This document shows positions 15,393-59,872 of a stretch of 64,000 bases of DNA, in pieces. The translations under genes were made by a program, and so were the position numbers. Position 1 is the stretch's first letter; the number at the start of each line of letters is the position of its first letter. The notes below the pieces were generated by a model. It saw only the letters and a list, made by a program, of their open reading frames with translations, searched no databases and was not told the origin of the DNA. Origin of the DNA: Candidatus Omnitrophota bacterium. Lineage in GTDB: Bacteria > Omnitrophota > Gorgyraeia > Aquiviventales > Aquiviventaceae. The stretch is taken from NCBI GenBank assembly GCA_023247255.1, contig JAHFGV010000005.1:6067-70066 (forward strand), in the 5' to 3' direction.

Positions 15393-15401
15393 TGCGTTCT
15401 G

Positions 15402-24121: not shown

Positions 24122-24199
24122 GCCCGCGAGAGGGCTGCTCCATTGCGAGTCCTTCTCGTTCTCCTTGACGGTTGTGGCGCGTAGGCGTATTCTTCATGA

Positions 24200-25057: not shown

Positions 25058-25097
25058 AGAAGGATTCCCTGTTGAGCGCTACAGTTAGATATGAAAG

Positions 25098-28118: not shown

Positions 28119-28130
28119 AGGAGACGCCTC

Positions 28131-30634: not shown

Positions 30635-30638
30635 CCTG

Positions 30639-32995: not shown

Positions 32996-33032
32996 AATCT
33001 GCCATTTCCGGCTATGATATCTGCGGAGCATC

Positions 33033-34550: not shown

Positions 34551-34627
34551 GCCTGCCCGCCTGTCGTCCAAAAGTGTGATCTGGGTCATAGTTCGTCTCC
34601 CTGCGTTCTGAGAAGATTACTTAGGCG

Positions 34628-43308: not shown

Positions 43309-43322
43309 ATGACTCCCGTCAT
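43309..43322. promoter_or_regulatory. Palindromic candidate operator ATGAC-TCCC-GTCAT overlapping the start of the HTH gene
   Basis: Extended similarity to 39821 (tccatgac...cgtcatggaaga). Confidence 0.35.
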
Positions 43323-43581
43323 GGAAGAGCCTAGAGCAGATGCTGTAGGCTTTGATGTGCAGATGGACACAGTGACGGTCCGTGAGAAAATTAAGCGGCT
43401 GAAGACTACTCGACAGGCGCTGAGCTGGTCCGAGGAGGTCTGTGCCTATCACCTGGGCGTGACGTACTCGACCTTGAACCGTTGGGAGCGCGGCGAGTCC
43501 TTGCCGAAGAGCCGCGCGGTGCTCAAAGCGATTGACCAGTTCATTGCCCGGCACAGCAAGGAACAAGTCGGAAGGAGGTAA
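43309..43581 (+). CDS. XRE-family helix-turn-helix regulator
   Basis: [29 protein letters not shown]_3 pattern. Start uncertain because the ATG lies inside a palindrome. Confidence 0.45.
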
Positions 43582-43586: not shown

Positions 43587-43760
43587 ATGTTTGGGAATAT
43601 TGGGTTTCCAGAGCTGTTGGTGATTTTGTCGATCGTGCTCCTCCTCTTTGGGGCCAAGCGGCTGCCGGAGATTGCGCGTGGCTTGGGGAAGTCGCTCTCT
43701 GAATTCAAGAAGGGACTGAAGGAGATCGAGCACGACGTCAACGATGTCAAGAAGGTCTGA
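43587..43760 (+). CDS. tatA: Twin-arginine translocase subunit TatA/E (57 aa, below the ORF-track cutoff)
   Basis: RBS gaaggagg. [37 protein letters not shown]. Confidence 0.8.
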
Positions 43761-43766: not shown

Positions 43767-45365
43767 GTGGCGGCTCCGGTCAACCGGCCGATGACGGAAG
43801 CGTTGAGGATGCGTCTCGGTATGCTGATTGCGGTGGTTGCGCTAGGCTCAGGGTGCGCCAAGGAGCCATCCGCAACACTCTCGAGCGCGAAACCGTCTGT
43901 GACCCCGCAGATCGTTGAAATGGGCCGGCGGCTTTACAACAAGCAGTGCGCGGTCTGTCATGGCCCGAAGGGCGCGGGCGACGGCCAGGCAGCTTACCTC
44001 CTCTATCCTAAGCCGCGCGATTTCACACAAAACGAATTCCGACTTGTCTCGACCAGCACGATGCAGGCCACCGATGAAGATCTGTTTCTCACCATTACCC
44101 GTGGGACGCCCGGCTCCGCGATGCCCTCCTGGGAGACGCTGACGTCGGAGCAGCGCTGGGCGTTGGTGTATTACGTTCGCCACCTCACGGGTGCGAGCGA
44201 ATCCATTGATCCAGCCTCAATCATCCACGTCCCTCCAGAGACGCCGAAGACCCCCGAGAGCATCGCGCGTGGCCGCCAAATTTTTGTCCAGGCGTGCGCG
44301 TCCTGCCATGGGCCACAAGGCCGCGGTGATGGGCAGCAGGTCATGGCGGACAACGCCGGATATCCTATCAAGCCACGCGATCTCACCGCAGGCGTCTTTA
44401 AGGGGTCGTCTGAGAGCAACGATTTGTATTACCGAATTGTCGCTGGATTGCCGGGCAGCCCGATGCCAAGTTACGCTGACGTCTACACCGACGAGCAGTT
44501 GTGGGATCTCATCCACTACGTTCAATCGCTCGTACCGTCGGGAGTCGAGGATCGCGTCCGCATGCATGCACGGAGCATCCGCGCCCATCGGGTCAGAGGC
44601 GACATCCCATTAGAACCGACAGCGAAAATCTGGAGCACGAGACAACCGGTCTCTATCGCCCTCACACCATTGTGGTGGCGCGATCACCGAGTCGAAGGGG
44701 TCGAGGTCAAAGCGTTGCACAACGGCAAAGAGCTCGCGCTTCAATTGTCATGGAACGACCAGACGCGTGACAACTCGACCCTCACCCCGCAGGCGTTTTC
44801 CGATGGTGTCGCGGTAGAATTCTCCTTAGAACAGGACCCGCCGTTCTTTGGGATGGGTGACGCAAACGGAGTCGTGCAGATATGGCACTGGAAAGCCTCC
44901 TGGCAGGAGGACCTCAAGGGCTGGCAGGACGTGGAGACCGCCTACCCCAATGCTGCCGTGGATTGGTATCCCGCACAGCGTGACTATCAGCACGGTGAAC
45001 CCTCCGAGGTGAGCCAGTCGAGGACGGCCTCGCAGGACCCACGGTTCATGGGCGGATGGGGAGCGGGCAATCCCCTCTCCGATCCGAATCGAACGTCAGC
45101 GGCTGAGGAAGCGATGGCCAAGGGATTGGGGACGCTGACCTCACGCGCACCTTCGATGCAACGGATCCAAGCGGATGGTCTCTGGCAAGACGGTCGGTGG
45201 CAGGTCGTGCTGCATCGACCGCTTGCGCCCAACGAGGAGGGGGATCTGAGGCTGAAGCCTGGGCAGCAAGTCAGCGCGGCGTTTGCGATCTGGGATGGCC
45301 ATGCCGGGGATCGCAACGGCCAAAAGAGCGTGTCGATTTGGAACATCTTGGAGCTGGAGCGATAG
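43767..45365 (+). CDS. Lipoprotein-type diheme cytochrome c fused to a Trp-rich EB_dh/DOMON-like domain; candidate gamma/electron-transfer subunit for the adjacent molybdoenzyme
   Basis: LGSGC lipobox. CAVCHGPKGAGDG and CASCHGPQGRGDG. Approximately 270-aa C-terminal beta-rich W-rich domain. Confidence 0.6.
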   Translation: MAAPVNRPMTEALRMRLGMLIAVVALGSGCAKEPSATLSSAKPSVTPQIVEMGRRLYNKQCAVCHGPKGAGDGQAAYLLYPKPRDFTQNEFRLVSTSTMQATDEDLFLTITRGTPGSAMPSWETLTSEQRWALVYYVRHLTGASESIDPASIIHVPPETPKTPESIARGRQIFVQACASCHGPQGRGDGQQVMADNAGYPIKPRDLTAGVFKGSSESNDLYYRIVAGLPGSPMPSYADVYTDEQLWDLIHYVQSLVPSGVEDRVRMHARSIRAHRVRGDIPLEPTAKIWSTRQPVSIALTPLWWRDHRVEGVEVKALHNGKELALQLSWNDQTRDNSTLTPQAFSDGVAVEFSLEQDPPFFGMGDANGVVQIWHWKASWQEDLKGWQDVETAYPNAAVDWYPAQRDYQHGEPSEVSQSRTASQDPRFMGGWGAGNPLSDPNRTSAAEEAMAKGLGTLTSRAPSMQRIQADGLWQDGRWQVVLHRPLAPNEEGDLRLKPGQQVSAAFAIWDGHAGDRNGQKSVSIWNILELER

Positions 45366-45366
45366 C

Positions 45367-48300
45367 CATGTATCTGACGCGTCGTCAGTTTTTAAAACTC
45401 TCAGGAGCTACTGGAATCGGGTTGTATCTCGCCTCACGCGAGGTCTCGCTCTGGGCGCTGGAGCCGGTGAGCGAGATAGAGAATCCGCTCGCCTACTATC
45501 CTTCGCGAGACTGGGAGAAGCTCTACCGCGACCAGTACCGGTATGACAGCACCTTCTCCTGGGTCTGCTCGCCCAACGACACGCACGCCTGCCGGGTCCT
45601 GGCGTACGTGAGAAACGGCGTCGTGGTGCGTCTTGGCTCAGAGTACAACTATGAAACCTACGCCGACCTGTACGGAAACAAGGCCACTCCCAACTGGAAC
45701 CCGCGCCAGTGCGCCAAAGGTTTCACCTTTCATCGGCTCATCTACGGTCCTTACCGCTTGAAACATCCCATCATCCGTAACGGTTGGAAGCGCTGGGCCG
45801 ACGACGGATTCCCAACGCTGACCCCTGAGAAAAAGACACAATACAAGTTTGACTCGCGCGGCACAGACACTTTTGAAAAAATCAGTTGGGAGGATATCTA
45901 CGGCTACATTGCCCGCGGCCTCATCGCTATCGCTACGCGCTACAGCGGCGAGCCGGGCATAACACTCCTGCGCGCACAGGGCTATCCCGAGGAAATGATC
46001 CAAGCGATGGGTGGGGCCGGGACACGGACCTTGAAGTTCCGCGGCGGGATGGGCCTGCTTGGGGTGTTTGGCAAGTACGGCATGTACCGACTGGCGAACA
46101 CGATGGCGCTTCTCGATGTCCACCTGCGCGGTGTCAAGCCTGAGGAGGCGAAGGCCGGACGGACGTGGTCCAACTACACGTGGCACGGCGATCAGGCGCC
46201 GGGGCATCCCTGGGTGCATGGATTGCAGAACGCCGACTGCGATTTCAACGACCTTCGTTTTTCCAAGCTGATCATCCAGGACGGCAAGAACCTCTGCGAG
46301 AACAAGATGACCGACTCGCACTGGTTCATTGAATGTATGGAGCGTGGGGCAAAGCTGGTGACGATCGCGCCCGAATACAGCCCGCCGGCGTCGAAGTCGG
46401 ACTATTGGATTCCGATTCGCCCGCAGACCGATGCCGCGCTCTTCTTGGGTATCACGCGCCTCATGATCGACCGAGGCTGGTACGACCGGGAGTTTATCCT
46501 GAACTTCACCGACTTTCCGCTCTTGGTGCGAACCGACACCCTGCGGCGCCTTCGAGCGAATGAGATCCTGCCGGGCTACCAAGGGCAGTTGTCCAAGGAC
46601 GGCCCAAGCTACAAGCTCCAGGGATTGAAGGACGAGCAGTATGCCAAGTTGGGGGACTTCGTCGTCTGGGATGAATCCTCCGGAGCGCCCGCCGCAATCA
46701 CACGCGACGACGTCGGCAAGCGTCTCGTACAGAAAGGCGTCCACCCCGCGCTTGAAGGGACGTTTACACTCAACACGGTGGATGGGAAGCGTATTGAGGT
46801 GATGACGCTCTTTTCGCTCTATCAACTCCACCTCAAGGACTACGACCTTGATACCGTGCATGAGATCACTCGCGCGCCGAGAGAGCAGATCGAACAACTC
46901 GCGAAGGACATCGCCACTATCTCGCCAGTCGCGATCCACCAAGGCGAGGGCATCAACCACTACTTCCACGCCACCGAGGCCAATCGCGCCGCCTATCTGC
47001 CGCTGATGCTGACCGGCAACATCGGCCAACGCGGTGCTGGCTGCTACGGATGGGCCGGCAACTACAAGGCTGCGCTTTTCCAAGGCTCTCCATGGACCGG
47101 TCCGGGATTCAAAGGCTGGGTGGCCGAGGATCCGTTTGAGCCTAACCTTGACCCCAACGCGCACGGGAAAGACATCCACGCGCACGCCTACTTCAAGGAC
47201 GAAGAGCCGGCTTATTGGAACCACGGGGATAAGCCGCTGATCGTCGAGACGCCCAAGGGCGGCCGCAAGGTCTTCACCGGCAACACTCACATGCCCACAC
47301 CCACAAAGGCGATGCTTTTCACCAACGTGAACCTCATCAACAATGCCAAGTGGGTCTATGAGATGCTCAAGAACGTCAACCCGAATGTCGAGATGATCCT
47401 TTCTATCGACATCCAAATGACCGCTTCGATCGAATACGCGGACTTAGCACTGCCGGCGAATAGCTGGCTTGAGTTCGAGGGGCTGGAGGTTACGGCGTCA
47501 TGCTCCAACCCTTTCCTCCAGATCTGGAAGGGCGGGATTCCGCCTGTGTTCGACAGCCGGGATGATCTGGTGATTCTCGCCCAGATCGCCGAAGCGCTCG
47601 GCAAGGAAATCGGCGATACGCGCTGCAGCGACTACTGGAAGTTTGCGCTCGAGGGCAAGCGCGAAGTCTACATCCAGCGGCTGCTGGATTCCTGCACGAC
47701 GACGGTTGGCTATCGTCTGGAGGACATCATGGCGGGCAAGTACGGGCCGCCGGGGGCGGCACTCATGCTCTTTCGCACCTATCCCCGGATCCCCTTCTGG
47801 GAGCAGGTGCACGAGGACTTACCTTTCTACACCGACCACGGGAGGCTTTCGGCCTACACCGATGTGCCCGAGGCGATCGAGTACGGCGAGAATTTCATCG
47901 TCCACCGTGAAGGTGCGGAGGCGACACCCTACCTGCCGAACGTCATCGTCAGCAGCAACCCGTACATCCGCCCCAACGATTACGGTATTCCCTTATCGGC
48001 GGAGCACTGGGATGACCGCACGGTGCGCAACGTGAAGATGCCGTGGGATCAGGTCAAAGGCACAAAGAATTTCCTCTGGGAAAAGGGCTTTCAGTTTTAC
48101 TGTCTAACTCCCAAGAGCCGCCATCGCGTCCACTCGCTTTGGAGCAACGTGGACTGGCACCAAATCTGGGACTCCAACTTCGGCGATCCCTACCGGATGG
48201 ACAAACGCAGCCCTGGTGTTGGCGAACACCAGGTTCACATGAATCCCCAGGCGGCAAAGGATTTAGGGATCAATGACGGCGATTACGCCTATGTCGATGC

Positions 48301-48820
48301 GAATCCAGCAGATCGTCCCTACATTGGGGCGAAACCTGACGATCCGTTCTATCGGGTGGCGCGGCTGATGCTGCGTGTCAAGTACAACGCAGCCTACCCG
48401 TACAACGTCGTCATGATGAAGCACGGGACCTATATTGCCACCGAGAAATCTGTGAAGGCCCACGAGACGCGCAAGGATGGACGGGCCCTCTCCGCTGACA
48501 CCGGCTACCAGGCGAACTTCCGCTACGGGTCGCAGCAGAGTGTCACGCGCAACTGGCACATGCCGATGCACCAGACCGACTCACTCTTCCACAAGGCGAA
48601 GGTCTTCATGGGCTTTCTCTTCGGCGGCGAGGCGGACAATCACGCGGTCAACACGGTTCCGAAAGAGACGCTGGTGCGCGTGACGAAAGCGGAAGACGGC
48701 GGGTTGGGTGGCCAGGGCGTGTGGGCTCCGGCGACGACCGGCTATACCCCGGCCAACGAGAACGACACGATGAAGAAGTACCTCGAAGGCCGGTTCGTTG
48801 AGGAGAGCAAGAAATGGTAA
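45367..48820 (+). CDS. Tat-exported NarG/NxrA-like molybdopterin oxidoreductase alpha subunit (type II DMSO-reductase family; about 1151 aa)
   Basis: ATG 45367 gives MYLTRRQFLKLSGATGIGL, a twin-arginine signal. N-terminal Cys/His FS0-type cluster region. Length and Tat signal fit periplasmic Nxr/Nar-like enzymes rather than cytoplasmic NarG. Confidence 0.8.
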
Positions 48821-49521
48821 ACGAGAGCCGCGCTTACCGCAATCGATGGAAATATCTATGTGCAGGGCTTACGAGCGTCATGCTCGTTCTAGGACTCACT
48901 CCAATGAGCTGGGCGAGGGATGATCTCCAGGTGTGGAATACCATCGAGCTCAGCAAGCGGCTCGGTCCACATTGGGAGGTGTTTTTCCTTCCGGAGATAC
49001 GGATACGCGATGATGCGGGCGAGTTCTTTTACCACGAGTACCGCCAGGGTGTGCGCTACAAGCCCTCCAAACACTGGCAACTCGGGCTCAATTACCTATT
49101 CGTTCGCAACGAGTCCTCCGGCAAACCGCTCGAGGAGCATACCGGCGAGCTCGACCTCACGCCTAAAACGACGCTAGGCCCCCTCGAGGTCTCTCTGCGA
49201 GGGCGGCTGGCGCTGCGGACCATTCAAGGCAGCACCGGCGAGCAGGAATGGCAGTTTCGAGTGATGCCGAAGGTCGCGTATCCGACCCAGTTCGTCGGTC
49301 ACAAGCTCATCCCCTACGCCGCCGATGATCTGTACTACGACTACACCCGCGACGCGTGGAACCAGAACCGGGTGTTCCTTGGTCTTGCCATCCCCATGGG
49401 CAAGGCGCTTGGCGCCGAGACGACGGTGGATGTCTACTACATGCTCCAGAGTCAACTCGGCAAACGGCACGACTGGAGCAGCAGCCACGTCCTGGGGACG
49501 AAACTGAGTGTCAGATTTTGA
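48814..49521 (+). CDS. Exported beta-rich protein (possible small outer-membrane barrel or heme-b gamma-like subunit), interposed between the alpha and beta genes
   Basis: Signal peptide. Alternating hydrophobic pattern. C-terminal ...LSVRF. Confidence 0.35.
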   Translation: MVNESRAYRNRWKYLCAGLTSVMLVLGLTPMSWARDDLQVWNTIELSKRLGPHWEVFFLPEIRIRDDAGEFFYHEYRQGVRYKPSKHWQLGLNYLFVRNESSGKPLEEHTGELDLTPKTTLGPLEVSLRGRLALRTIQGSTGEQEWQFRVMPKVAYPTQFVGHKLIPYAADDLYYDYTRDAWNQNRVFLGLAIPMGKALGAETTVDVYYMLQSQLGKRHDWSSSHVLGTKLSVRF

Positions 49522-49541
49522 CGAGATGAGGCGTGTGAGCG

Positions 49542-49818
49542 ATGCCGTATAAGGAACCCGAACCGGATGATCCTTTGGAGCTGACGGGAGTCGTCCTACC
49601 TGCTTCGGACGAGACGTCACTGAAGGAAATGGCCGTGTGTTTCGTCGAAGAGTTCCTGCGCGACGGCTGGTCGGATGAGCAGCTTCGTGCGATGTTCCGC
49701 AATCCCTACTACCGAGGTCCCTACCTCGTGTGGCGGCAGAAGGGCGATGCATACGTGGAGGCTGTGATCCAGGAAGTCCGTCACATCTGGCGCCCCAACG
49801 CAGCCGGAGGAGCGACTC

Positions 49819-49826
<8 letters not shown>
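49542..49826 (+). CDS. Small hypothetical protein (94 aa)
   Basis: Overlaps the beta subunit start. No recognisable motif. Confidence 0.3.
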
Positions 49827-51057
<1,231 letters not shown>

Positions 51058-51087
51058 ATTTTGCTGCGCAACATTTATTAACCGGAT

Positions 51088-51867
51088 ATGAATCCTACGA
51101 TAAATCTTCCTTCGGAAAATTTAATTGAGGACCTGCTGGCGAGAAGCGCCGTCTATCATGCGCTGTCGCTGCTGCTGCGCCATCCAGACGCGGCCGCCAT
51201 GAAGTGGCTGTCGATGCGGGAATATCAGCGGCTGGCTGAGGTCGTGGAGATGCTGACGAAGGAACGAAAGGGATCATTGCACGAGGCTGTGCGGTATATG
51301 ATGACGGCGTTCGAGGGGGTGTCGATTGCGGAGTGGACCCGCGACTATGAACGGATCTTCGGACACTCGGTCCAGAGCGCGGCGCCACCCTATGAACTGG
51401 AGTACGGCGAGGAGCACAGCCATCGGCAGCCGCAGGAGCTGGGCGATATCGCGGCATTCTATCGAGCGTTCGGCCTTCGCGTGGCCTTTGCCTCGCATGA
51501 GCGGATCGATCATATCGTCACGGAGTGCGACTTCATGCAGTACCTGCTCTATAAGCAAGCCTGTGCACTTGATGAGGGGAGCGAGGAGCGGGCGGATGTG
51601 TGCGAAACGGCAGCCCAGCAGTTCCTCGCTGATCACCTCGGTCGCTGGGGTCCGGCCTTTGCCCTAAGACTCTCGCGAGCGGCTGAGCAGAGAGTCTTGG
51701 GAGCGCTTGCCGATACGACCCTGGCATGGCTGGTGCAGGATTGCGAGCGTATGCAGGTGCCTACCGGATCACGCGACCTCCCGCTGCGACTGCCCAAGGA
51801 ACGGGATGAGGTGGGATGCGCAGCGTGCGCACCTCAGCAGCTAGGAAATACTGATGGCAAGCGTTGA
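51088..51867 (+). CDS. NarJ/TorD-family redox-enzyme maturation chaperone
   Basis: 259 aa. Position after beta. Acidic helical protein with the EYxRLF-type pattern (ERIFG). Confidence 0.55.
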   Translation: MNPTINLPSENLIEDLLARSAVYHALSLLLRHPDAAAMKWLSMREYQRLAEVVEMLTKERKGSLHEAVRYMMTAFEGVSIAEWTRDYERIFGHSVQSAAPPYELEYGEEHSHRQPQELGDIAAFYRAFGLRVAFASHERIDHIVTECDFMQYLLYKQACALDEGSEERADVCETAAQQFLADHLGRWGPAFALRLSRAAEQRVLGALADTTLAWLVQDCERMQVPTGSRDLPLRLPKERDEVGCAACAPQQLGNTDGKR

Positions 51868-52801
51868 TGTCCAGTTTGATCCAGCATTTGTGGAAGAGAC
51901 GGTTTTCCTTGAATTGAGGAACCGGGAAGCCCTCGGCAATTGCGCGATGGCGCAGGCGTTTCATGTACAGCGCAGCGCCCTCTATGACACCACGACCGCA
52001 ACAGGCGAGCGCGAGGCGCGATTTCAGCAGCTGGCAGCCCGCTATTTCCAGGAGCTTGGATTCTCCGAGCTCTTTGCGAAACGGTTCGAAGAGTTTCCGC
52101 TGATCGGAGCGCATGTTCCTGTTGCGCTGGTGCGACGCGCCTGGAGCCGCAAGGAAGAGCGCGTTGAGTTATACGTTCCCCCTACGCCCGGTGGGGGCTC
52201 AAGCCTCAAAGCTTTTCCGACGCTGTGGATCGGTTTTCAGGTCGCCCGGTGCTTAAATCGCGAGCAGCTCGTGGCGTTCCTGCGGCATGAGCTCATGCAC
52301 ATCTCTGATATGTTTGACCCGGCGTTCGGGTACCAACCGCATCCAGACTTCGGCGCGGAGTGTGAAACAGAAGAGGACCTAATCCGTAAGCGCTTCCGAT
52401 TGCTGTGGAACCTCGTTGTGGATGGGCGGATGCGCCGGAAGGGCTGGCCGGCCGTTGACCATGGAACGACACGTCTTCGGGAGTTTGAGCGGGCGTTTGC
52501 CTCCTGGGACCCGCAGCGCCGCGAGGCGGTGTGGCCGGATCTTGGCAACCGAGCATCCTGCACGCAACGTGAGCTCCTGGAACTGGCGAAGGACGAACGT
52601 CTCACCCGGATGCTGGGGCAAGGCGGCGTTCGCTGCCCCTTGTGCCATTTTCCGACGCGGGAGGGCGTGTGCGATTGGCGTGGCGAACGCGCGGCTGTTG
52701 CTGAAGCGATCCAAACGGATTACGCCTGGTGGGATCCGGTTCAGGGAGCATGCCGGCAGTGCTTCGAGTTGTATCGCGCAAGGCTACCGGTGATGGGATG
52801 A
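51854..52801 (+). CDS. Hypothetical protein with an HExxH motif and a C-terminal Cys4 zinc-ribbon
   Basis: LRHELMHISDMFDP. CPLCHF-x9-C...CRQC. Confidence 0.45.
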   Translation: MASVDVQFDPAFVEETVFLELRNREALGNCAMAQAFHVQRSALYDTTTATGEREARFQQLAARYFQELGFSELFAKRFEEFPLIGAHVPVALVRRAWSRKEERVELYVPPTPGGGSSLKAFPTLWIGFQVARCLNREQLVAFLRHELMHISDMFDPAFGYQPHPDFGAECETEEDLIRKRFRLLWNLVVDGRMRRKGWPAVDHGTTRLREFERAFASWDPQRREAVWPDLGNRASCTQRELLELAKDERLTRMLGQGGVRCPLCHFPTREGVCDWRGERAAVAEAIQTDYAWWDPVQGACRQCFELYRARLPVMG

Positions 52802-53172
52802 CGCGCGAAGACGCAAATGCGACGAACGGCGAAATCAATCGGCGCACGTTTCTCGCCTCGGCGCCTCGGCACCTGCTGGACGGGCTGAGAGCGCTGATGA
52901 GCGATCTCAGAGGGCTCTCGCCGCCTGTCTTGGATGACCAGGCATGGCCGCTTCCTCGAAAGGTGGCGATGCTGGATGTCTCGCGGTGTCTCGCGTGGGG
53001 AGGAGGGGGCTGTCAGGTGTGTTATCTCCGGTGTCCCCTGCGTGAGCGTGCGATGGTGTTTGAGGATGGCAAACCAACGGTGGTGGCTTCCATGTGCGAC
53101 GGCTGTGGTGTCTGTGTCGAGGCGTGCGAAGCCGTCAATGACCTTGGAGCGATGACGCGTGTGAGTGTATGA
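52799..53172 (+). CDS. Tat-signal ferredoxin-like protein with two [4Fe-4S] motifs (NapF/NapG-like accessory)
   Basis: NRRTFLAS twin-arginine. CLAWGGGGCQVCYLRCP and CDGCGVCVEAC. Confidence 0.55.
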
Positions 53173-53888
53173 CGCGCGTCAGGGTTCTTTGGGGTGTGAT
53201 CGCGTAGGGTACGTGGTGGGATGACAATTCGAAACGACGCTCCGAGTTCAGCGACCTAAGCTCGCGTGATGGCGGGGATGGTCCCTGAACCCCTGTCCCA
53301 CACGCAACGCCGCGTGTAGGACCGGGCCGGGAAGGAAACGACTCGGCCTCCTCGTGTTCGGAAAGGAGACGGCAGGCTGGAGTATCGTCAAGCCAGCTTC
53401 TCTTTCCACACGAGGAGCTGGCTTGTTTCGTCACTGAGGGACGGTACCCGATGCAGGAACAACGTGTGACGCTCTGGTGCAAGGTGTTGGGTCGGCTGGT
53501 TGAGGTGGTCATCGCCAGGAATCACCATGCCCAGCCACCAGTCCCAGGGGTCCCTGAAGGCTGGAAGGTAACGGAGTGTCTGGAGAAAGACACGCCGTGT
53601 TTTGGCAAGGGCTGTCCGTTCACTACGGATGGTGGAGAGTCCCCCTTTGGGGAGGCGGGCGAGCTGCCCGATCTCTCCTCTGAGTCGTTCGATCCGCTCG
53701 CTGAACCAGGGTCTGAGGGAAAGGGTAGTTGACCCCACCACCTGTCTGTCAAGGCAGCTCCGTTGTTCCACGCTGACAGGATGCCTTGATGGACGTGACA
53801 GGGAATCGGACACGATGTTTCGGTATACAGTAAAAAGATTAGTAGGCACGTCCAAGACCGCCGTCTGCGGTTCCAGCCAGGTGGTGCG

Positions 53889-54875
53889 GTGATGGGCGCA
53901 CTCTGCGATCGGTTTGGCCGTCGCATCGAGTACCTGCGCATCTCGGTGACGGATCGGTGTAACCTCCGCTGCATCTATTGCCTGCCGGCGTGCGGAATCA
54001 AGTGGCTGCCGCGCGAGGAGATCCTGCGGTTTGAGGAGATCCGGGAAATCGTTCGCGTTGGGATAGCCCTGGGACTCACCCATGTGCGGCTGACCGGCGG
54101 CGAGCCACTCATCCGCGAAGGCCTTGCCGAGCTCGTCCAGATGCTCGCGGCGATCCCACACCTCGAAGACCTCTCCTTGAGTACGAACGGGGTGTTGCTC
54201 TCGCGAGACGCGAGGACGCTTGCGCGCGCCGGCCTTCGGCGCGTCAACATCAGCCTCGACACGCTAAAGGCTGAGCGGTTTCATGCCATCACGCGCTTCG
54301 GCGCGGTGTCCGATGTCCAGGCGGGGATTGAAGCTGCCTTGGAAGTGGGGCTTGATCCGGTCAAGCTCAATGTCGTGGTCATGCGCGGAATCAACGACGA
54401 TGAACTCGTTGAACTGGGTCGCCTCACAATCGATCGACCACTCCATGTGCGCTTTATCGAGCTGATGCCCATCGGGGATTTCTTCTCACGGGAGCGCCTG
54501 GTGCCGTCCGAGGAAATCCTCGCGTGTCTGGGCGCGTTGGGTGAGCTGTGGCCGAGTAGTGGCCCAGGTGGTTGCGGCCCGGCGAGAACGTTTGCGTTGG
54601 ACAAAGCGCAGGGAACCATCGGCATCATCGGGGCGGTAACGCAGGCCTTCTGTGCGCAGTGCAATCGGCTTCGGCTGACGGCAACCGGCCAGTTGCGGCC
54701 GTGTCTTGATGATACCGCAGCGGTTGATCTCAAACCCGCGCTGCGCCCCGCGATTGATCCCGGGCGGCTCGCTGAGTTGGTGCAACAGGCCGTAGAAGCA
54801 AAACCAGAGCAGCACAGCATGGCGCAACGGGATGCGGGGACCCCCCGCTTCTGCATGGCGGGAGTCGGCGGATGA
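53889..54875 (+). CDS. moaA: GTP 3',8-cyclase MoaA
   Basis: CNLRCIYC radical-SAM motif. C-terminal CAQCNRLRLTATGQLRPC. Confidence 0.9.
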   Translation: MMGALCDRFGRRIEYLRISVTDRCNLRCIYCLPACGIKWLPREEILRFEEIREIVRVGIALGLTHVRLTGGEPLIREGLAELVQMLAAIPHLEDLSLSTNGVLLSRDARTLARAGLRRVNISLDTLKAERFHAITRFGAVSDVQAGIEAALEVGLDPVKLNVVVMRGINDDELVELGRLTIDRPLHVRFIELMPIGDFFSRERLVPSEEILACLGALGELWPSSGPGGCGPARTFALDKAQGTIGIIGAVTQAFCAQCNRLRLTATGQLRPCLDDTAAVDLKPALRPAIDPGRLAELVQQAVEAKPEQHSMAQRDAGTPRFCMAGVGG

Positions 54876-55348
54876 AGATGGTTTCGACGCAGCGTCGACA
54901 CAACGCGCAGGTGCGCATGGCGGATGTAAGCGCGAAGTCCCCAATCCTCCGGACGGCGGTGGCGCGGTGTGAACTGGTGATGAAGCCAAGGACGCTGGCG
55001 ACCATTAAGGCGGGCAAACTGCCAAAGGGCGATGTATGGCCGGTCGCCCAGGTCGCGGGGATTCTGGCGACGAAGCGAACGGCCGAGCTCATCCCCCTGT
55101 GCCATCCAATTTCAATCAACCATGTCACCTTGCGTCAGGAATTGAATGGGCGATGTGTGACAATTGAAGCTGAGGTCACCACGACGGCGCCCACAGGCCC
55201 GGAAATGGAAGCCCTGACGGCGGCGGCCGTCGCGGCGCTTACGGTCTACGACATGTGCAAAGTCATCGAACGGGGCATCGTGATTCGACAGCTGTATCTG
55301 GTGAGCAAGTCAGGTGGTAAGAGCGGCACGTGGAGGCGACATCAGTAA
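54872..55348 (+). CDS. moaC: Cyclic pyranopterin monophosphate synthase MoaC
   Basis: 158 aa. LIPLCHPI motif. Confidence 0.9.
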   Translation: MKMVSTQRRHNAQVRMADVSAKSPILRTAVARCELVMKPRTLATIKAGKLPKGDVWPVAQVAGILATKRTAELIPLCHPISINHVTLRQELNGRCVTIEAEVTTTAPTGPEMEALTAAAVAALTVYDMCKVIERGIVIRQLYLVSKSGGKSGTWRRHQ

Positions 55349-55584
55349 TGTGGTCACGCTGTTGGTGGGCGACCTGGGTGTCAGGGTTCTTCGGGATCGC
55401 CGGTGTCTTGCATGTGGCGAGGTTCTTCTTCCGCGTTCCCGTGCGGGTCGGGACGTATGATGTCCCGCTCAGGGTCAGCGTGCTGGTTGGCGTGGTGTTC
55501 GTCAGCATCTCAGCGGGGTTGCTCTGGATCGAGGTCCAGCGTGAGCGAACCAAGCGTCGCTCAGTGGGAGAACAGAAGGCGTAA
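55330..55584 (+). CDS. Possible small 2-TM membrane protein
   Basis: Two hydrophobic helices. No other support. Confidence 0.25.
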   Translation: MEATSVMWSRCWWATWVSGFFGIAGVLHVARFFFRVPVRVGTYDVPLRVSVLVGVVFVSISAGLLWIEVQRERTKRRSVGEQKA

Positions 55585-55585
55585 G

Positions 55586-56068
55586 ATGACGTGGGAGGTG
55601 GGGATTCTGACCGTCAGCGACACGCGCTCTCAAGGCATCCGGGCAGACACGGCGACAGCGCTCATCCGCCAACTCTTGGAGAAGGCCGGGTTTGCGGTGT
55701 GCGAGACCCTCCTGGTTCCAGATGATGTCCGGCAGATTCAAGAGCTGCTCATCGACTTCGCCGATCGGCGGAAGCTTCCACTCGTTATCACAACCGGGGG
55801 GACAGGCTTTGGGCCACGCGACGTGACCCCGGAGGCGACGTGTCGTGTGATCGAACGCGAGGTGCCGGGTTTGCCTGAAGCGATGCGAGTGGCCACGGCA
55901 GAACGAAATCCTCTAGCTTGGTTATCACGTGGCGTGGCGGGACTGCGAGGCCGCACCCTGATCGTCAATCTCCCAGGTAATCCCGATGGCGCAATGGAGT
56001 GCTTAGAGGCGCTCCTGCCGCTATTGCCGCATGCACTTGAGATGGTCAACGGATGCGCTCATGGGTGA
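55586..56068 (+). CDS. moaB: MoaB/MogA-family molybdopterin adenylyltransferase
   Basis: ITTGGTGFGPRDVTPEA motif. ATG 55586. Confidence 0.8.
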   Translation: MTWEVGILTVSDTRSQGIRADTATALIRQLLEKAGFAVCETLLVPDDVRQIQELLIDFADRRKLPLVITTGGTGFGPRDVTPEATCRVIEREVPGLPEAMRVATAERNPLAWLSRGVAGLRGRTLIVNLPGNPDGAMECLEALLPLLPHALEMVNGCAHG

Positions 56069-56705
56069 CCATCAGCACCACGCGCAGACCATTCGGCACT
56101 TTGGGCACCTGGCCGCCCACTACGACCATCGGCATCGGCACTATAACCAGGTGACCTTGAGCCGGGCGGTGGAAGCGCTAAAGCTCTCTCCGGCGGGATG
56201 TGTGCTCGACGTGGGGTGTGGGACCGGGGAGCTGATGCGGCTCGTGCAGAGTCACCATCCGCAGGCAACCCTCGTCGGGATCGGTGTGACGCCTGAGATG
56301 ATTGCGGTCACACGGGAGAAATTTCAGCACGTGCCTCGGGTGAGGTTGTGCCTCGCGGAAGCCGAGGCGCTGCCGTTTGCTGCGGAAAGTTTCGAGGCGG
56401 TCGTCTCCTGTAACATGTTGCATCATGTGCACGCGATCGACCAGTTGTTTCGCGAATGTGCGCGGGTCCTGCGACCCCAGGGTCAATTGGTCGTTGTCGA
56501 CTGGTCCCGGGACTTCTGGCACTGCCAGCTGGCCCACTACTGTCTCCGTCTTGTCAAGCGTAGCTACGTGAAGATGTACCGCGCGTCCGAACTCGTCAAG
56601 CTCGCTGCGCCGCTTGGCCTAGCCGTGGAGGATGTCAGCCGGTTCTTCGTGCCACCCTATTTCGGGATGATGCGGGTGGTGGCCACAAGGCAGGAGACGC
56701 CTTGA
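56061..56705 (+). CDS. Class I SAM-dependent methyltransferase
   Basis: VLDVGCGTGEL motif I. Confidence 0.7.
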   Translation: MGDHQHHAQTIRHFGHLAAHYDHRHRHYNQVTLSRAVEALKLSPAGCVLDVGCGTGELMRLVQSHHPQATLVGIGVTPEMIAVTREKFQHVPRVRLCLAEAEALPFAAESFEAVVSCNMLHHVHAIDQLFRECARVLRPQGQLVVVDWSRDFWHCQLAHYCLRLVKRSYVKMYRASELVKLAAPLGLAVEDVSRFFVPPYFGMMRVVATRQETP

Positions 56706-56706
56706 G

Positions 56707-57440
56707 ATGGACGGCCTGTGGTGGCTTGTCCCTGTGTTTTTTGTGATTGCCCTGGCATACGCTTCGGTGGGGCACGGGGGCGCATCGGGGTATCTGGCGG
56801 CGCTGTCGTTTTTCGCCTTCTGTCCGGATGAAATGGCCACGACGGCGCTCACGTTGAATCTCTTCGTAGCTGGCATAGCCCTGATGAGCTTTGCGCGGGC
56901 AGGCCATTTTGTCGGCCGACTCACGTGGCCGTTTGTCGTCGCGTCGGTCCCAGCCGCTTTTCTGGGAGGGCTCATCCCTGTGTCGGTTCGCTTCTATCAG
57001 GTGCTGCTCGCGATCGCCTTGGGCGTGGCGGCGGTCCGTCTTTCCCTGGATCTCCGTGGCCGAGAAGAGGGTCGTGTCGTGAGGCCCAGCTTGGCGCTCG
57101 CGTTGCCGACCGGCGGCGGAATCGGGTGGCTCTCGGGAGTAGTCGGCGTAGGAGGAGGGATTTTCCTGAGCCCCTTTCTGCTGTTATTGCGCTGGGCTAC
57201 CCCAAAGCAGACAGCCGCCGCTTCAGCCGCGTTCATCCTCATCAATTCAGCCGCCGGTCTTTGCGGGCGGTCAGATCCGGCCTTGAGTATGGAACCCTGT
57301 GGCCGTTGCTCGCAGCCGCCCTGATCGGTGGATGGGTTGGCGCACACCTGGGCGCGAACCATTTCTCTGGACAGATACTAAAACGGCTCCTGGCGGTCAT
57401 ACTTCTCATCGCAGCTGCCAAGTTGCTTATCAGCCAATGA
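56707..57440 (+). CDS. TauE/SafE-family (sulfite exporter-like) membrane protein, split by an apparent frameshift near 57255-57290
   Basis: Two overlapping ORFs (56707..57324 and 56925..57440) together reconstruct a TauE-like protein. Confidence 0.5.
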
Positions 57441-58690
57441 GCGCACACAGGACACAGGTTCACGTTTCGGCACCCCGCCTCACCCGTGTTGACGAAGCCA
57501 GACGCATCGTGCTGGCGCAGGCCACGACGCTTGGCCCAGAACGGGTGCGGTTGGAGGATGGCATCGGCCGGGTCCTTGCGCAAGACGTCATCGCCGAGGC
57601 GAGCTTACCTCCCTTTGACAACTCGGCGATGGATGGCTATACCGTTCGATCCGCCGATACGGCTGGTGCGTCACGAGAACAACCCGTGAGGCTGAAGCTT
57701 GTCGGTAAGGTGGCTGCTGGTCAGACGCTGGAACGTGAGGTCAACCGAGGCGAGGCGGCCAAGATCATGACCGGGGCGCCGCTTCCGATCGGGGCCGATA
57801 GCGTCGTGATGTTAGAAGAAGCGCGGTTCCGTGATGGGATCGTCGAGATCCGAAGTCCCGTGGCGCCTGGGAGCCACATCCGCAAAGTAGGTGAGGATAT
57901 CCCGGCGGGCAACAGCGTCCTCACGGCGGGGTCCCGGATTCGCCTCCAGCATCTCGGTCTGCTCGCTGGGTTGGGATATGCGACGCTTCCGGTCTATCGC
58001 TCGCCCACCGTCGTGGTCCTGGCGACCGGCAGCGAACTCGTGAACATCGACGAGCCACTGGCGCCAGGAAAGATCCGCAACTCCAACGGCTTGGTGCTGG
58101 CTGCCCTCCTGCGCCAGCTTGGGATCCAGCCCCTTGATCTGGGCACGGCGGTTGATGAACGAGTGCGCATCCAGCGAAAGCTCCAGGAAGCTGCCGCGTC
58201 TGACGTCATCCTGATTTCTGGAGGCGTGTCAGTTGGCGAACACGATCTCGTGAAGCGCATTCTGCGGGATCTGGGGATGGAGATATTCTTCTGGCGGGTC
58301 AACATGAAACCCGGAAAGCCGCTGCTCTTCGGGCGCTGGCGAGGCAAAGTGATATTTGGGTTGCCAGGCAATCCCATTTCCTGTGTGGTGTGTTTTCTGG
58401 AATTCATCAGTCCGTTTCTGAGAAAAGTGATGGGGGAACGGGACGTGGATCAGGGACGGGTTCACGCACGGCTCACTCAGTCGATCAGGAAGAAAGAGCC
58501 ACGTAGGCAACTCTTCACGGCGAAGCTCGAAGAGGATCAGGGCGGGCTTTCGGTGACGCCGACACCGCAGCAGGGCTCAGGGATGCTCAACAGCCTTGCG
58601 CAGGCGAATGCCTTCATCGTCGTTCCTGAGGAAACGATGCGACTTGAGGCCAGTGATCTCGTCGAAGTCCTACCACTGTGGGGTGACTGA
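57437..58690 (+). CDS. moeA: Molybdopterin molybdotransferase MoeA
   Basis: ATG 57437 (AATGA overlap). LPPFDNSAMDGY and GGVSVGEHD motifs. Confidence 0.85.
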   Translation: MSAHRTQVHVSAPRLTRVDEARRIVLAQATTLGPERVRLEDGIGRVLAQDVIAEASLPPFDNSAMDGYTVRSADTAGASREQPVRLKLVGKVAAGQTLEREVNRGEAAKIMTGAPLPIGADSVVMLEEARFRDGIVEIRSPVAPGSHIRKVGEDIPAGNSVLTAGSRIRLQHLGLLAGLGYATLPVYRSPTVVVLATGSELVNIDEPLAPGKIRNSNGLVLAALLRQLGIQPLDLGTAVDERVRIQRKLQEAAASDVILISGGVSVGEHDLVKRILRDLGMEIFFWRVNMKPGKPLLFGRWRGKVIFGLPGNPISCVVCFLEFISPFLRKVMGERDVDQGRVHARLTQSIRKKEPRRQLFTAKLEEDQGGLSVTPTPQQGSGMLNSLAQANAFIVVPEETMRLEASDLVEVLPLWGD

Positions 58691-59172
58691 TGGCGCTCGT
58701 GGTGAGTATCTATGGCCCGTCAGGCAGCGGTAAGACGACGCTGATCGAACGTTTGATCCCTCGGCTTGTGGCACGTGGCCTCAAGATCGGTGTGATCAAG
58801 CATACTCACCACGGCCTTACGGTGGATCCTCAAGGGAAGGATAGCTGGCGAATATGGCAGGCTGGCGCGCAGGCGGTGCTTCTGGCTGCGCCACAGGAAA
58901 TTCTACTGAGGCAGCGGAGTTCGGAACCTTCCTTTGGCAGCGCACTGGCACTGATGCCCGGTGATCTGGATTGCATTTTTGTCGAGGGGTTTGCAGGTGA
59001 CACCACAGCACCGCAAGCGAATGTGCAATTACGGCTGGCCGTTTCTCATGAGGGTGTGTGGCTCAACGGGAGGCAGCGATCTCGCGATGATCTTGCCGCT
59101 GTTGAAGAAGCCATCATTGAGTTGATGAAGGGTTCTACGGGTGCCGACCTGATCAGAATGATGCAGGGATGA
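58690..59172 (+). CDS. mobB: Molybdopterin-guanine dinucleotide biosynthesis adapter MobB
   Basis: P-loop GPSGSGKTTL. 160 aa. Confidence 0.8.
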   Translation: MALVVSIYGPSGSGKTTLIERLIPRLVARGLKIGVIKHTHHGLTVDPQGKDSWRIWQAGAQAVLLAAPQEILLRQRSSEPSFGSALALMPGDLDCIFVEGFAGDTTAPQANVQLRLAVSHEGVWLNGRQRSRDDLAAVEEAIIELMKGSTGADLIRMMQG

Positions 59173-59441
59173 CCGTTTCGAGCATAGCAGTCCAAATGTC
59201 CGTCCGAGTTCTGTCGTTTGCCCAGTTACGGGGGCTGTTTGGAGCCGACGAGCTGGTCGTGTCCCTGCCGGGTGGATCGACTGGTCGGGACGTGATGAGA
59301 TGGTTTGTCCAACGCAACCCTAAGGTGGAAGATTTGCTTTCGGTTTCGCGGCTGGCGGTCAACGGTGAGTACGTGTCGTTGGAGCAGGTATTGAAGGATC
59401 GGGATGAGGTCGTGATCATCCCTCCGGTGAGCGGAGGCTGA
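59169..59441 (+). CDS. moaD: Molybdopterin synthase sulfur carrier subunit MoaD
   Basis: 90 aa ending in the diglycine ...PPVSGG. Confidence 0.75.
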   Translation: MTVSSIAVQMSVRVLSFAQLRGLFGADELVVSLPGGSTGRDVMRWFVQRNPKVEDLLSVSRLAVNGEYVSLEQVLKDRDEVVIIPPVSGG

Positions 59442-59443
59442 CG

Positions 59444-59872
59444 ATGGCCTTTTTGACGCATGACCCCATTTCAGTGACCGAGTGGCACGACATTACTGTT
59501 GATCAGCGCAACGGTGCCTCTGTGGAGTTTCTGGGGATTGTGCGCGGACACGAGGGGAATCGAGCGATCGTCTATCTCGAGTATGAGGCGTATGAGCCGA
59601 TGGCAGAGCGGCTCATCGCCCAGTTTGTTAAGGAAGCTAAAACGCGCTGGCCTCTTCACCAGGTCTACGCGCGTCATCGCTTGGGCCGAGTGGATGTGGG
59701 AGAGATTGCCGTGCTGATCGGCGTCCAGGCGCCACACCGGGACCAAGTGTTTGAAGCGTGCCGCTTCCTCATCGACGCCATCAAACGTGATGCGCCGATC
59801 TGGAAGATAGCCTATGACGCAACCGGCGAAGTCGCCCAGGAATACCATGTCTACGAAGGCCGAAATCACTGA
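59444..59872 (+). CDS. moaE: Molybdopterin synthase catalytic subunit MoaE
   Basis: 142 aa. GIVRGHEGNRAIVYLEYEAYEPMA. Confidence 0.85.
   Translation: MAFLTHDPISVTEWHDITVDQRNGASVEFLGIVRGHEGNRAIVYLEYEAYEPMAERLIAQFVKEAKTRWPLHQVYARHRLGRVDVGEIAVLIGVQAPHRDQVFEACRFLIDAIKRDAPIWKIAYDATGEVAQEYHVYEGRNH

Follow-up and report, generated by a model that had tools for sequence, protein, structure and literature searches.

Nitrite:nitrate oxidoreductase (NXR) makes almost all nitrate on Earth, and its periplasmic form has never been expressed heterologously, its assembly factors being unknown (PMC8387239). For the enzyme of Kuenenia stuttgartiensis (KsNXR; PDB 7B04), the Mo ligand, Asn70 and the FS0 residues were named by Chicano 2021, and nitrate reduction in vitro is about 25 times faster than nitrite oxidation (PMC8387239). 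Two ORFs lie between nxrA and nxrB in this organism (PMC6423088). The alternative gamma subunits of Nitrospina gracilis and Nitrospira defluvii carry one to three heme-c sites next to a DMSO-reductase-type heme-b domain, and according to Lucker et al. 2013 the genes conserved together with NXR include those for an alternative NxrC bearing heme-c sites, for a TorD-like chaperone and for a putative zinc-finger protein (PMC3578206). For the selenate reductase SerABC, a diheme cytochrome c4 acts as redox partner (role cited in PMC3578206).

The locus described here lies in a 64-kb stretch of Omnitrophota DNA, referred to below as the window. Judging from its sequence, the region very probably encodes a complete periplasmic NXR (pNXR) of the Nitrospira/Nitrospina/anammox type together with conserved maturation genes. 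With Kuenenia NXR-ABC (PMC8387239) it shares a Tat-exported NxrA with Asp275, Asn70 and a 3Cys/1Asp FS0 site, an NxrB Fe-S subunit and a Met/Lys EB_dh heme-b subunit, as well as additional coding sequence between nxrA and nxrB, although kustd1701/1702 and orf94 are compared by gene position alone. It differs in that the gamma gene lies upstream, is fused to a diheme cytochrome c and has a possible lipid anchor, and in that it has neither an NXR-T tubule subunit nor an anammoxosome, and no genes for a bd-like oxidase or cupredoxin in the cluster; whereas the Kuenenia cluster has 15 genes, that of the window is compact and comes with tatA, ferredoxin, DUF2490 and Moco genes. The likeness to the NXRs of N. 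gracilis and N. defluvii (periplasmic location, alternative NxrC, TorD-like chaperone, zinc-finger protein) is drawn from published description, as is that between the 315-aa protein of the window and the zinc-finger protein of Lucker 2013 (PMC3578206), which are likened by description only. In these cultured nitrite oxidizers nxrAB(C) lie side by side, apart from the accessory genes, whereas the window has all of them in one operon, with the c-heme fusion as the only gamma candidate. SerABC plus cytochrome c4 and ethylbenzene dehydrogenase have the same periplasmic alpha-beta-gamma plan with an EB_dh gamma, but Ser/Ebd-type alpha subunits are distant from the window NxrA, their substrates differ, and in the window the diheme cytochrome c partner is fused to gamma.

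Organization of the locus

All listed ORFs between 43587 and 53172 are tightly packed on the + strand, and consecutive genes overlap by up to 14 nt or are separated by at most 30 nt, consistent with a single operon. The features of the locus are as follows.

43309..43581, + strand: XRE-type HTH regulator, 90 aa (Pfam HTH_31, E=1e-6), directly 5' of tatA
43587..43760, + strand: TatA, 57 aa (TIGR01411, 72 bits; cut-off 53.9)
43767..45365, + strand: predicted triheme gamma subunit, 532 aa (Pfam Cytochrom_C twice, EB_dh PF09459)
45368..48820, + strand: NxrA, Mo-bisMGD catalytic subunit, 1150 aa (full-length match to PDB 7B04_B)
48814..49521, + strand: DUF2490 putative outer-membrane beta-barrel, 235 aa (PF10677, E=1.8e-24)
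49542..49826, + strand: orf94, small cytoplasmic protein of 94 aa between nxrA and nxrB (conserved position)
49819..51057, + strand: NxrB, Fe-S electron-transfer subunit, 412 aa (7B04_A, Fer4_11, TIGR03478)
51088..51867, + strand: TorD/NarJ-type chaperone, NxrD-like, 259 aa (PF02613, E=1.4e-19; TIGR03482, the type II DMSO-reductase chaperone model, E=1.8e-22)
51854..52801, + strand: cytoplasmic protein of 315 aa, putative zincin-like core and C-terminal 4-Cys zinc ribbon
52798..53172, + strand: Tat-signal 2x[4Fe-4S] ferredoxin, 124 aa (NRRTFLA, 8 Cys, Fer4_10 E=3.6e-6)
53228..53385, + strand: Moco riboswitch (Rfam RF01055, 61.6 bits; gathering threshold 36)

The HTH regulator, which occupies the equivalent position in the closest relatives (L005, L039, L082 and L083), presumably controls the operon. 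Only 6 nt separate the end of tatA from the gamma-fusion gene. The Moco riboswitch opens a downstream Moco-biosynthesis/tatC unit that reaches about 60644 and includes moaA, moaC, mog/moaB, moeA, mobB, moaD, moaE and tatC, while ResB/CcsA genes are located upstream of the nxr cluster. Every gene that an earlier note on this DNA had read from the letters alone was recovered where that note had placed it, among them tatA, the TorD-like chaperone, the zinc-ribbon protein and the Tat-ferredoxin.

The catalytic and electron-transfer subunits

In a comparison with the PDB, NxrA matched KsNXR-A (7B04_B) over residues 1-1145 with 1848 bits, and with 64% identity over the first 900 aa, compared with 185 bits for PcrA, 160 bits for EbdA and 96 bits for NarG. 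The start of the protein, MYLTRRQFLK, contains the Tat motif RRQFLK and narrowly exceeds the cut-off of the Tat model TIGR01409 (16.8 versus 16.7 bits); the twin arginine is kept in 75 of 81 homologues. Translation truly begins at the ATG at 45368: GGAG stands 5' of it, residue 1 of mature-numbered KsNXR-A lines up with it, and public assemblies (P0001) call the same start. The earlier assignment of the alpha subunit as a Tat-exported, periplasmic NXR type and not a cytoplasmic NarG is borne out by the conserved twin arginine and by the scores against KsNXR-A and NarG. Inspection of the residues around the Mo-ligating Asp, which had been proposed as a check, found all of them retained: Cys67, Asn70, Asp71, Cys75 and Asp275 are invariant in 81 aligned homologues, the window protein included, with Asp275 as Mo ligand, Asn70 facing the substrate and the unusual 3Cys/1Asp set at the FS0 site. 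The Mo-site pattern Y-4x-D-11x-QN, described for Nitrospira defluvii (PMC6050957), could also be read directly from the sequence.

Among curated models, the broad type II family model TIGR03479 gave 341 bits against a cut-off of 984.75, so that no curated model formally names NxrA; the EbdA model (168 bits, cut-off 2000) and the NarG model TIGR01580 (129.8 bits, cut-off 1084) also scored below their cut-offs. These comparisons place NxrA within the broad type II DMSO-reductase family and outside its Pcr, Clr, Ser, Ebd and Ddh branches. The substrate is almost certainly nitrite/nitrate, because the full-length match is to the biochemically characterized KsNXR-A and the active-site and FS0 residues are identical; the same evidence makes this couple by far the likeliest where the earlier note had considered the substrate undecidable.

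NxrB matched KsNXR-B (7B04_A) over its full length with 625 bits, aligned Cys motifs and 65% identity, in addition to Pfam Fer4_11 and TIGR03478. The 532-aa protein upstream of NxrA had been proposed to join a gamma subunit and a cytochrome in one polypeptide, and its domain content agrees with this, with two Cytochrom_C matches in a diheme cytochrome c region (aa ~47-257) and an NxrC-type EB_dh heme-b region (aa ~306-532), the EB_dh model PF09459 that had been suggested as a check matching at aa 306-521 (E=2.1e-27). Its PDB matches are the diheme cytochrome 6H5L_B (E=5e-49) and KsNXR-C (7B04_C, E=4e-30), the NxrC domain being 36% identical to Kuenenia NxrC. By alignment, the heme-b ligands Met363 and Lys520 correspond to Met155/Lys305 of Kuenenia, and both CxxCH motifs, both distal Met residues, Met363 and Lys520 are invariant in 61 homologues. 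The gamma subunit is predicted to be a three-heme protein in which a Met/Lys heme-b EB_dh domain is fused to a diheme cytochrome c, and its signal peptide with a lipobox-like LGSGC30 suggests a possible lipid anchor. In KsNXR, Met/Lys coordination of heme b has been reported as a likely contributor to the high redox potential. A diheme cytochrome c of class I joined to a heme b with Met/Lys ligation, as in the fusion, would be as well suited to nitrite oxidation as to nitrate reduction.

Taken as a working complex, NxrA would receive its cofactor in the cytoplasm with the assistance of the TorD-like chaperone, and conserved gene order suggests that orf94 and the 315-aa zinc-ribbon/zincin-like protein probably also assist in loading. 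The Tat system, with tatA upstream and tatC downstream, would export NxrA together with NxrB, whereas the gamma fusion would be exported via Sec, possibly to be lipid-anchored, and would obtain its c hemes from the ResB/CcsA system encoded upstream. The periplasmic complex would then interconvert NO2- + H2O and NO3- + 2H+ + 2e-, with electrons moving along Mo, FS0, FS1-4, heme b and the two c hemes to and from an external partner.

Conservation of the gene order

Of 80 related loci, which come from more than 10 phyla including Omnitrophota, Methylomirabilota, Binatia, Planctomycetota and Acidobacteriota, nearly all have the order [cyt c2-NxrC]-NxrA-orf94-NxrB-TorD-like-[315-aa zinc-ribbon protein]. 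The recurrence of this order in about 80 independent loci puts the cluster far beyond chance. While the six-gene order is common to the window and to these NXR-like clusters of metagenome-assembled genomes (MAGs), the DUF2490 insertion is shared only with the two closest metagenome contigs, adjoining Moco genes are limited to the Omnitrophota-like clade, and an upstream tatA is limited to its nearest members. Outside the six-gene core, Rrf2 regulators (in at least 17 loci) and CRP/FNR-type regulators are found beside related clusters, and unrelated genes, among them toxin-antitoxin-like genes and hemerythrin, can be inserted in the nxrA/orf94/nxrB slots. The window NxrA is 72-92% identical to its counterparts in uncultured MAGs, some of which (P0017, for instance) are already annotated by NCBI as 'nitrate oxidoreductase subunit alpha'. 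Together with a few flanking genes, nxr of the window resembles that of MAGs assigned to Omnitrophota. The description of the architecture as unusual in the earlier note does not hold up against this comparison, since gamma fusion, alpha, orf94, beta, chaperone and zinc-ribbon protein follow one another in nearly all 80 loci and companions of this kind were already published. Most of the seemingly odd accessory genes are standard, conserved NXR companions in many environmental genomes, and the locus is otherwise an ordinary, already-sequenced representative of a known enzyme family.

Direction of the reaction

Given that this enzyme type is reversible in vitro, the direction of the reaction would be set by the host. 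Use of the enzyme for respiratory or dissimilatory nitrate reduction is the reading towards which we lean, at what we would call even chances. The hints are weak and contextual: the ferredoxin of the operon is Tat-exported and of a low-potential type, upstream there are genes for NapC/NirT-like proteins and for a cytochrome b/multiheme fusion, NapH-like Fer4_5 proteins sit downstream in Phycisphaerae loci, related clusters are flanked by Rrf2 and CRP/FNR-type regulators, one Omnitrophota relative has an anaerobic ribonucleotide reductase close to its cluster, and KsNXR reduces nitrate faster in vitro (PMC8387239). Against this lean, none of the operon's own genes codes for a quinol dehydrogenase, a terminal oxidase or a nitrite reductase.

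It is possible, if doubtful, that the host is instead an unrecognized nitrite oxidizer in which the complex runs oxidatively, either to conserve energy or to detoxify nitrite, and its electrons reach a terminal oxidase or some other acceptor of high potential by way of heme b and the fused diheme cytochrome c. The closest characterized enzymes are nitrite-oxidizing NXRs, and the Y-4x-D-11x-QN pattern is that of Nitrospira defluvii (PMC6050957). The fused c hemes are moreover a candidate for the high-potential cytochrome c that Kitzinger 2018 lists as a further requirement, a periplasmic orientation energetically favors oxidation, and the window encodes a fatty-acid desaturase that depends on O2, a hint that the host meets oxygen. 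Against this, no terminal oxidase or CO2-fixation genes were found in the window or in the retrieved flanks, the operon includes a ferredoxin-type carrier, and related loci have NapH-like proteins, FNR/Rrf2 regulators or anaerobic RNR genes. The module also spans many phyla, reaching a recognized nitrite-oxidizing lineage only via one Nitrospinota MAG, and NXR is reversible (PMC8387239).

Accessory proteins

The position of orf94 is retained in 77 of the 80 loci, and both orf94 and the 315-aa protein keep their places across more than 10 phyla at 26-50% sequence identity, with start and stop codons that overlap the neighboring nxr genes. Searches of Pfam and NCBIfam with the 315-aa protein gave no match; its family comprises about 1170 representative clusters and is without a Pfam model. 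The zinc ribbon that had been noticed in this protein was found, with four Cys, but the HExxH motif reported with it is not conserved: homologues have Y, Q, S, F, R or G in place of its first His. E146 alone is invariant, while at least 90% of homologues retain H149. By this motif the protein does not qualify as a zincin (HExxH) metalloprotease, for which both His residues would have to be conserved; its core may have a zincin-like fold.

A signal-peptide protein of 235 aa and a 94-aa ORF do lie between alpha and beta, as previously described, but the check for EB_dh that had been suggested for the former came out negative: it yielded no EB_dh match and was assigned to DUF2490 (86.9 bits, Pfam cut-off 29.8), a family listed as putative porin, TC 1.B.81 (PMC4827864). 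Its sequence has a hydrophobic N-terminal signal and ends in SVRF, with a C-terminal Phe, and its reading frame overlaps the nxrA stop codon. The gene, a lineage-specific insertion, is absent from all 80 genome loci compared, whereas L082 and L083, the closest two of the metagenome contigs, have it at the equivalent place with 85-86% identity. The Tat-ferredoxin is found mainly in the Omnitrophota-like clade, and also in locus L079. It shows weak NapG/RnfB similarity, far under the cut-offs (NapG 26.6 bits against 269; mauM_napG 16.1 against 178.85), and was not accepted as NapG/MauM, its eight Cys accounting for two clusters where the family requires four Fe-S clusters; what the two have in common is only Tat export and the ferredoxin fold. 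As for tatA, it lies upstream of the cluster only in the nearest clade and downstream in other Omnitrophota loci. The DUF2490 barrel, the Tat-ferredoxin and the position of tatA are clade-restricted additions.

That orf94, the 315-aa protein, DUF2490 and the ferredoxin are all unrelated neighbors of the NXR system is unlikely. None of the four has a characterized homologue, DUF2490 and the ferredoxin have the narrow distributions just given, and the nxrA/orf94/nxrB slots do accept foreign genes, but the first two proteins hold their positions across more than 10 phyla and their genes overlap adjoining nxr genes. For DUF2490 and the ferredoxin alone the same explanation is plausible, if not the one we favor; against it, DUF2490 overlaps the nxrA stop codon, and its counterparts in the two closest relatives have kept 85% identity. 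A bolder reading, which we regard as improbable, would have Omnitrophota and the other lineages with the six-gene module be unrecognized nitrite oxidizers, or anaerobic nitrite oxidizers that pass electrons via the fused c hemes to adjacent multiheme-cytochrome machinery, with orf94 and the 315-aa protein as the missing dedicated pNXR maturation factors.

Alternative assignments of the enzyme

Activity on another type II DMSO-reductase substrate (chlorate, perchlorate, selenate, dimethylsulfide or a hydrocarbon) is very unlikely. In its favor, members of the family differ widely in function, no NCBIfam equivalog model scores the alpha subunit above its curated cut-off, and an EB_dh-type gamma is common to Ebd, Ser, Clr and Ddh; however, the similarity to KsNXR-A is about ten times that to PcrA or EbdA, Asn70, Asp275, the 3Cys/1Asp FS0 site and the Y-4x-D-11x-QN pattern are all kept, and the Rrf2 regulators flanking the cluster in at least 17 loci are putative NsrR-like N-oxide sensors. 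A canonical cytoplasmic NarG with the Tat motif upstream of its true start is scarcely credible and was rejected: NarG proteins do bear vestigial Tat-like motifs and the longest ORF begins 57 codons upstream, at a GTG at 45197, but the evidence for the ATG at 45368 and the conserved twin arginine speak against it, as do NarG scores of only 96-130 bits, a gamma subunit of EB_dh type in the absence of a NarI gene, Cys/Asp at FS0 (Cys67/Asp71) where NarG has His, and the flanking tatA and tatC.

Implications

The window presents a compact, apparently self-contained cassette of tatA, three-heme gamma, alpha, orf94, beta, chaperone, zinc-ribbon protein and ferredoxin, followed by the Moco riboswitch, Moco biosynthesis genes and tatC. 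Within it, orf94 and the 315-aa family, uncharacterized and almost obligatorily linked to NXR across more than 10 phyla, present themselves as concrete candidate factors for NXR maturation; taken together, they would give a minimal set of genes with which to attempt expression. For the lineages of this clade (Omnitrophota, Methylomirabilota, Binatia, Planctomycetota and Acidobacteriota), metagenomic 'nxrA' matches should not be equated with nitrite oxidation without physiological evidence.

Identity of the enzyme and content of the operon

All open reading frames that the earlier note had reported were found on the plus strand between 43587 and 53172; the spacing of consecutive genes ranges from a 14-nt overlap to a 30-nt gap. 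Domains were assigned with Pfam and NCBIfam scans.

Genes of the operon, with Pfam/NCBIfam assignments
43587-43760, +, TatA
43767-45365, +, 532-aa protein (gamma fusion): two cytochrome c domains, then EB_dh at the C-terminus (E=2.1e-27)
45368-48820, +, molybdopterin oxidoreductase (alpha subunit, NxrA)
48814-49521, +, DUF2490 protein (E=1.8e-24)
49542-49826, +, 94-aa ORF (orf94), no match
49819-51057, +, 4Fe-4S beta subunit (NxrB)
51088-51867, +, NarJ/TorD-type chaperone
51854-52801, +, 315-aa protein, no match
52798-53172, +, small ferredoxin with an NRRTFLA Tat motif and eight Cys

For the alpha subunit, the start codon is the ATG of MYLTRRQFLK; a GGAG ribosome-binding site precedes it, and public gene calls use this start too (the public match P0001, 1150 aa, 100% identical). 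The ENA contig ERZ27280021:k141_5670910 has the sequence of the window save for a few SNPs and one indel. Scans for promoters and terminators yielded signals no higher than background.

The class of the alpha subunit was assigned by contrasting its PDB and NCBIfam scores. In a sequence search of the PDB, it matched subunit A of the Kuenenia stuttgartiensis nitrite oxidoreductase (KsNXR; 7B04_B) with 1848 bits over residues 1-1145, versus 185 bits for the perchlorate reductase PcrA, 160 for ethylbenzene dehydrogenase and about 96 for E. coli NarG. Placement with NarG, named beforehand as the result that would speak against an Nxr-like enzyme, is not what these scores give. NxrB aligned end to end with KsNXR-B (625 bits), and BLASTP against Kuenenia sequences re-typed from printed alignments gave identities of 64% for NxrA (first 900 aa), 65% for NxrB and 36% for the NxrC domain. 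In KsNXR, Asp275 is the Mo ligand and Asn70 faces the substrate, the unusual FS0 cluster is held by three Cys and Asp71, with Cys67 in place of the NarG His, and heme b is bound by Met155 and Lys305 of NXR-C (Chicano et al. 2021, PMC8387239). Alignments located all these key residues in the window proteins, and they are invariant across the related loci (81 NxrA and 61 gamma-fusion homologues). The window NxrA also carries the Mo-site pattern Y-4x-D-11x-QN (YTWHGDQAPGHPWVHGLQN) described for Nitrospira defluvii (PMC6050957). Judged by sequence, the locus encodes a periplasmic nitrite/nitrate oxidoreductase of the NXR type that is unlikely to act on other substrates; the earlier view that the substrate could not be decided was mistaken, given the full-length match to KsNXR-A and the retained key residues.

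The proposed fusion of cytochrome c and gamma subunit likewise stands, since the C-terminal domain does show the EB_dh similarity whose absence had been named as counting against it. Its diheme cytochrome c domain (aa 47-257; window 43767-44540) is 41% identical to chain B of PDB entry 6H5L (E=5e-49). We take this chain to be the diheme partner Kustc0457; if it is, NXR gamma-type cytochromes would connect to the anammox nitrite-reducing system. The 6H5L entry is a Kuenenia HAO structure according to a 2026 preprint.

Conservation of the architecture among relatives

A scan with one genome per species returned at least 590 confirmed stretches encoding relatives. The best 80 of these, with NxrA identities of 72-87%, come from MAGs of Omnitrophota, Methylomirabilota, Binatia, Planctomycetota/Phycisphaerae, Acidobacteriota, Sumerlaeota, Verrucomicrobiota, Gemmatimonadota, Hydrogenedentota, Eiseniibacteriota and one Nitrospinota. 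Among these 80, tblastn recovered the order [cyt c2-EB_dh fusion]-NxrA-orf94-NxrB-chaperone-315-aa protein in essentially all sufficiently long loci, orf94 being present in 77; contrary to what had been supposed, the architecture is therefore not unusual. Its components are already in the literature. An 'alternative NxrC', a TorD-like chaperone and a putative zinc-finger protein are common, along with NxrABC, to Kuenenia, Nitrospira and Nitrospina, and the Nitrospina alternative NxrC copies have one to three heme-c sites and a heme-b domain (Lucker et al. 2013, PMC3578206); two unnamed Kuenenia ORFs, kustd1701 and kustd1702, sit between nxrA and nxrB (PMC6423088). Database entries for close relatives already exist under the name 'nitrate oxidoreductase subunit alpha [Omnitrophica]', and literature searches for NXR in Omnitrophota, or for this clade in other phyla, gave generic metagenomic annotations only. 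On one Methylomirabilota contig (L027, 16608-22883), another type II DMSO-reductase cluster, more divergent (alpha 43% and beta 50% identical) and with its own EB_dh gamma subunit and chaperone, lies directly downstream of the NXR-like cluster.

Two members of the conserved set belong to uncharacterised families. The 315-aa protein, which carries a Zn ribbon, matched nothing in Pfam, NCBIfam or PDB sequences, and its homologues are annotated 'hypothetical' throughout, as they are in cluster look-ups; a profile search places it in a family of 1174 representative clusters, 665 of them at E<=1e-30 and nearly all of about 300-330 aa. The orf94 product, a small helical bundle with a conserved N-terminal MPYxDPDPxDP motif, had no useful match among PDB sequences and no informative one in a fold search. 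orf94 and the 315-aa protein might be homologues of kustd1701/kustd1702 and of the zinc-finger protein of Lucker et al., respectively, which we offer as a lead.

Clade-restricted genes and insertions

The 235-aa ORF between nxrA and orf94 had been suggested to be EB_dh-like; its Pfam match is DUF2490, and its candidacy as a second EB_dh/gamma subunit was rejected. The gene is missing from all of the best 80 of the at least 590 loci, and occupies the identical position in the two closest metagenome contigs (85-86% identity; their NxrA is 91-92% identical), so it is a genuine gene that was gained recently. The protein carries a signal peptide and has Phe as its last residue; among PDB sequences it found no useful match. 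Its family comprises putative outer-membrane porins of unassigned function (TC 1.B.81; PMC4827864), or outer-membrane beta-barrels according to a 2026 preprint; a role as nitrite/nitrate anion channel is speculation.

The Tat-ferredoxin and adjacent Moco genes occur only in the Omnitrophota-like clade, except that the ferredoxin also has matches in a further related locus (L079), and the upstream tatA only in the nearest members of that clade. The same inter-gene slots hold other insertions in other lineages. In Phycisphaerae and Sumerlaeota a hemerythrin gene (PF01814, E ~1e-21 to 1e-23) lies between orf94 and nxrB (related loci L055, 13871-14464; L061, 5431-6093; L056; L028), and in some loci the slots contain small opposite-strand ORFs resembling, by eye, toxin-antitoxin and nucleotidyltransferase genes. 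In the window, hemerythrin is encoded separately (25072-25761), by a gene adjoining a CRP/FNR regulator (24117-24875).

Genomic context

Selected features flanking the operon
28131-30191, +, 686-aa protein without Pfam match
33033-34550, +, NapC/NirT-like protein (multiheme cluster)
34628-36183, +, multiheme cytochrome c/cytochrome b561 fusion (multiheme cluster)
53228-53385, +, Moco riboswitch (RF01055, 61.6 bits)

The Moco riboswitch, followed directly 3' by a terminator-like hairpin (~53390-53435), separates the nxr operon from a Moco-biosynthesis/tatC string (53451-60644) in the order moaA, moaC, mog/moaB, methyltransferase, TauE, moeA, mobB, moaD, moaE, tatC. On the 5' side lie feoB with a DtxR/FeoA regulator, a ResB/CcsA heme-c maturation system and a cluster of multiheme c-type cytochromes (26853-36183, +), perhaps a module for quinol-linked or extracellular electron transfer, in which the 686-aa protein is possibly the porin of a porin-cytochrome complex. 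A 1-nt indel at ~35903, due to misassembly or to a frameshift at the strain level, splits the window copy of the cytochrome c/b fusion gene, which is intact (518 aa) in the near-identical ENA contig L001. Farther 5' are complex I nuoJKLMN and an F-type ATP synthase operon, whose atpG-atpD gap holds two small genes (15099-15680, +; 97 and 92 aa) resembling, by eye, an AbrB/SpoVT-like antitoxin and a toxin. Not far from tRNA genes (19140-19213, 23769-23842) is a DDE-family transposase (21135-22136, +; DDE_Tnp_4, E=6e-21).

Across the related loci, the most frequent non-core neighbour is an Rrf2-family regulator just 5' of the gamma-fusion gene, found in at least 17 (e.g. L055, 7670-8128; L085, 7808-8200; L086, 7839-8327); in the window an XRE-type HTH gene (43309-43581) takes its place. 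In five Phycisphaerae loci (L048, 16958-18898, and four others), a NapH-like membrane polyferredoxin (Fer4_5 and Fer4_10) fused to TPR repeats lies 3' of the 315-aa gene and could serve the NXR-like complex as a quinol-linked partner.

Direction of the reaction

KsNXR works both ways, and is faster as a nitrate reductase with artificial redox partners (PMC8387239). For the window enzyme, we give nitrate reduction in vivo roughly an even chance: the operon includes a Tat-exported ferredoxin, NapH-like Fer4_5 membrane proteins lie 3' of the cluster in Phycisphaerae loci, Rrf2 and, in several loci, CRP/FNR-type regulators precede the cluster, an anaerobic ribonucleotide reductase lies near it on a 2-Mb Omnitrophota contig, and the window encodes NapC/NirT-type cytochromes. 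Nitrite oxidation, a more doubtful reading, would fit the c-type cytochromes fused to gamma, the periplasmic orientation and the Met/Lys heme b, a ligation tied to high potential by Chicano et al. (PMC8387239); operation in both directions depending on conditions appears less probable still. No oxidase, nitrite reductase or CO2-fixation genes were found in the window or retrieved flanks, and what was retrieved of the contig beyond the window, checked for oxidases and nitrite reductases, carried housekeeping genes only.

Significance

The interest of the locus lies in its compact, self-contained cassette, in the two tightly linked uncharacterised families, which are candidate NXR maturation factors, and in the role of this widespread clade in bacteria without a reputation as nitrifiers.
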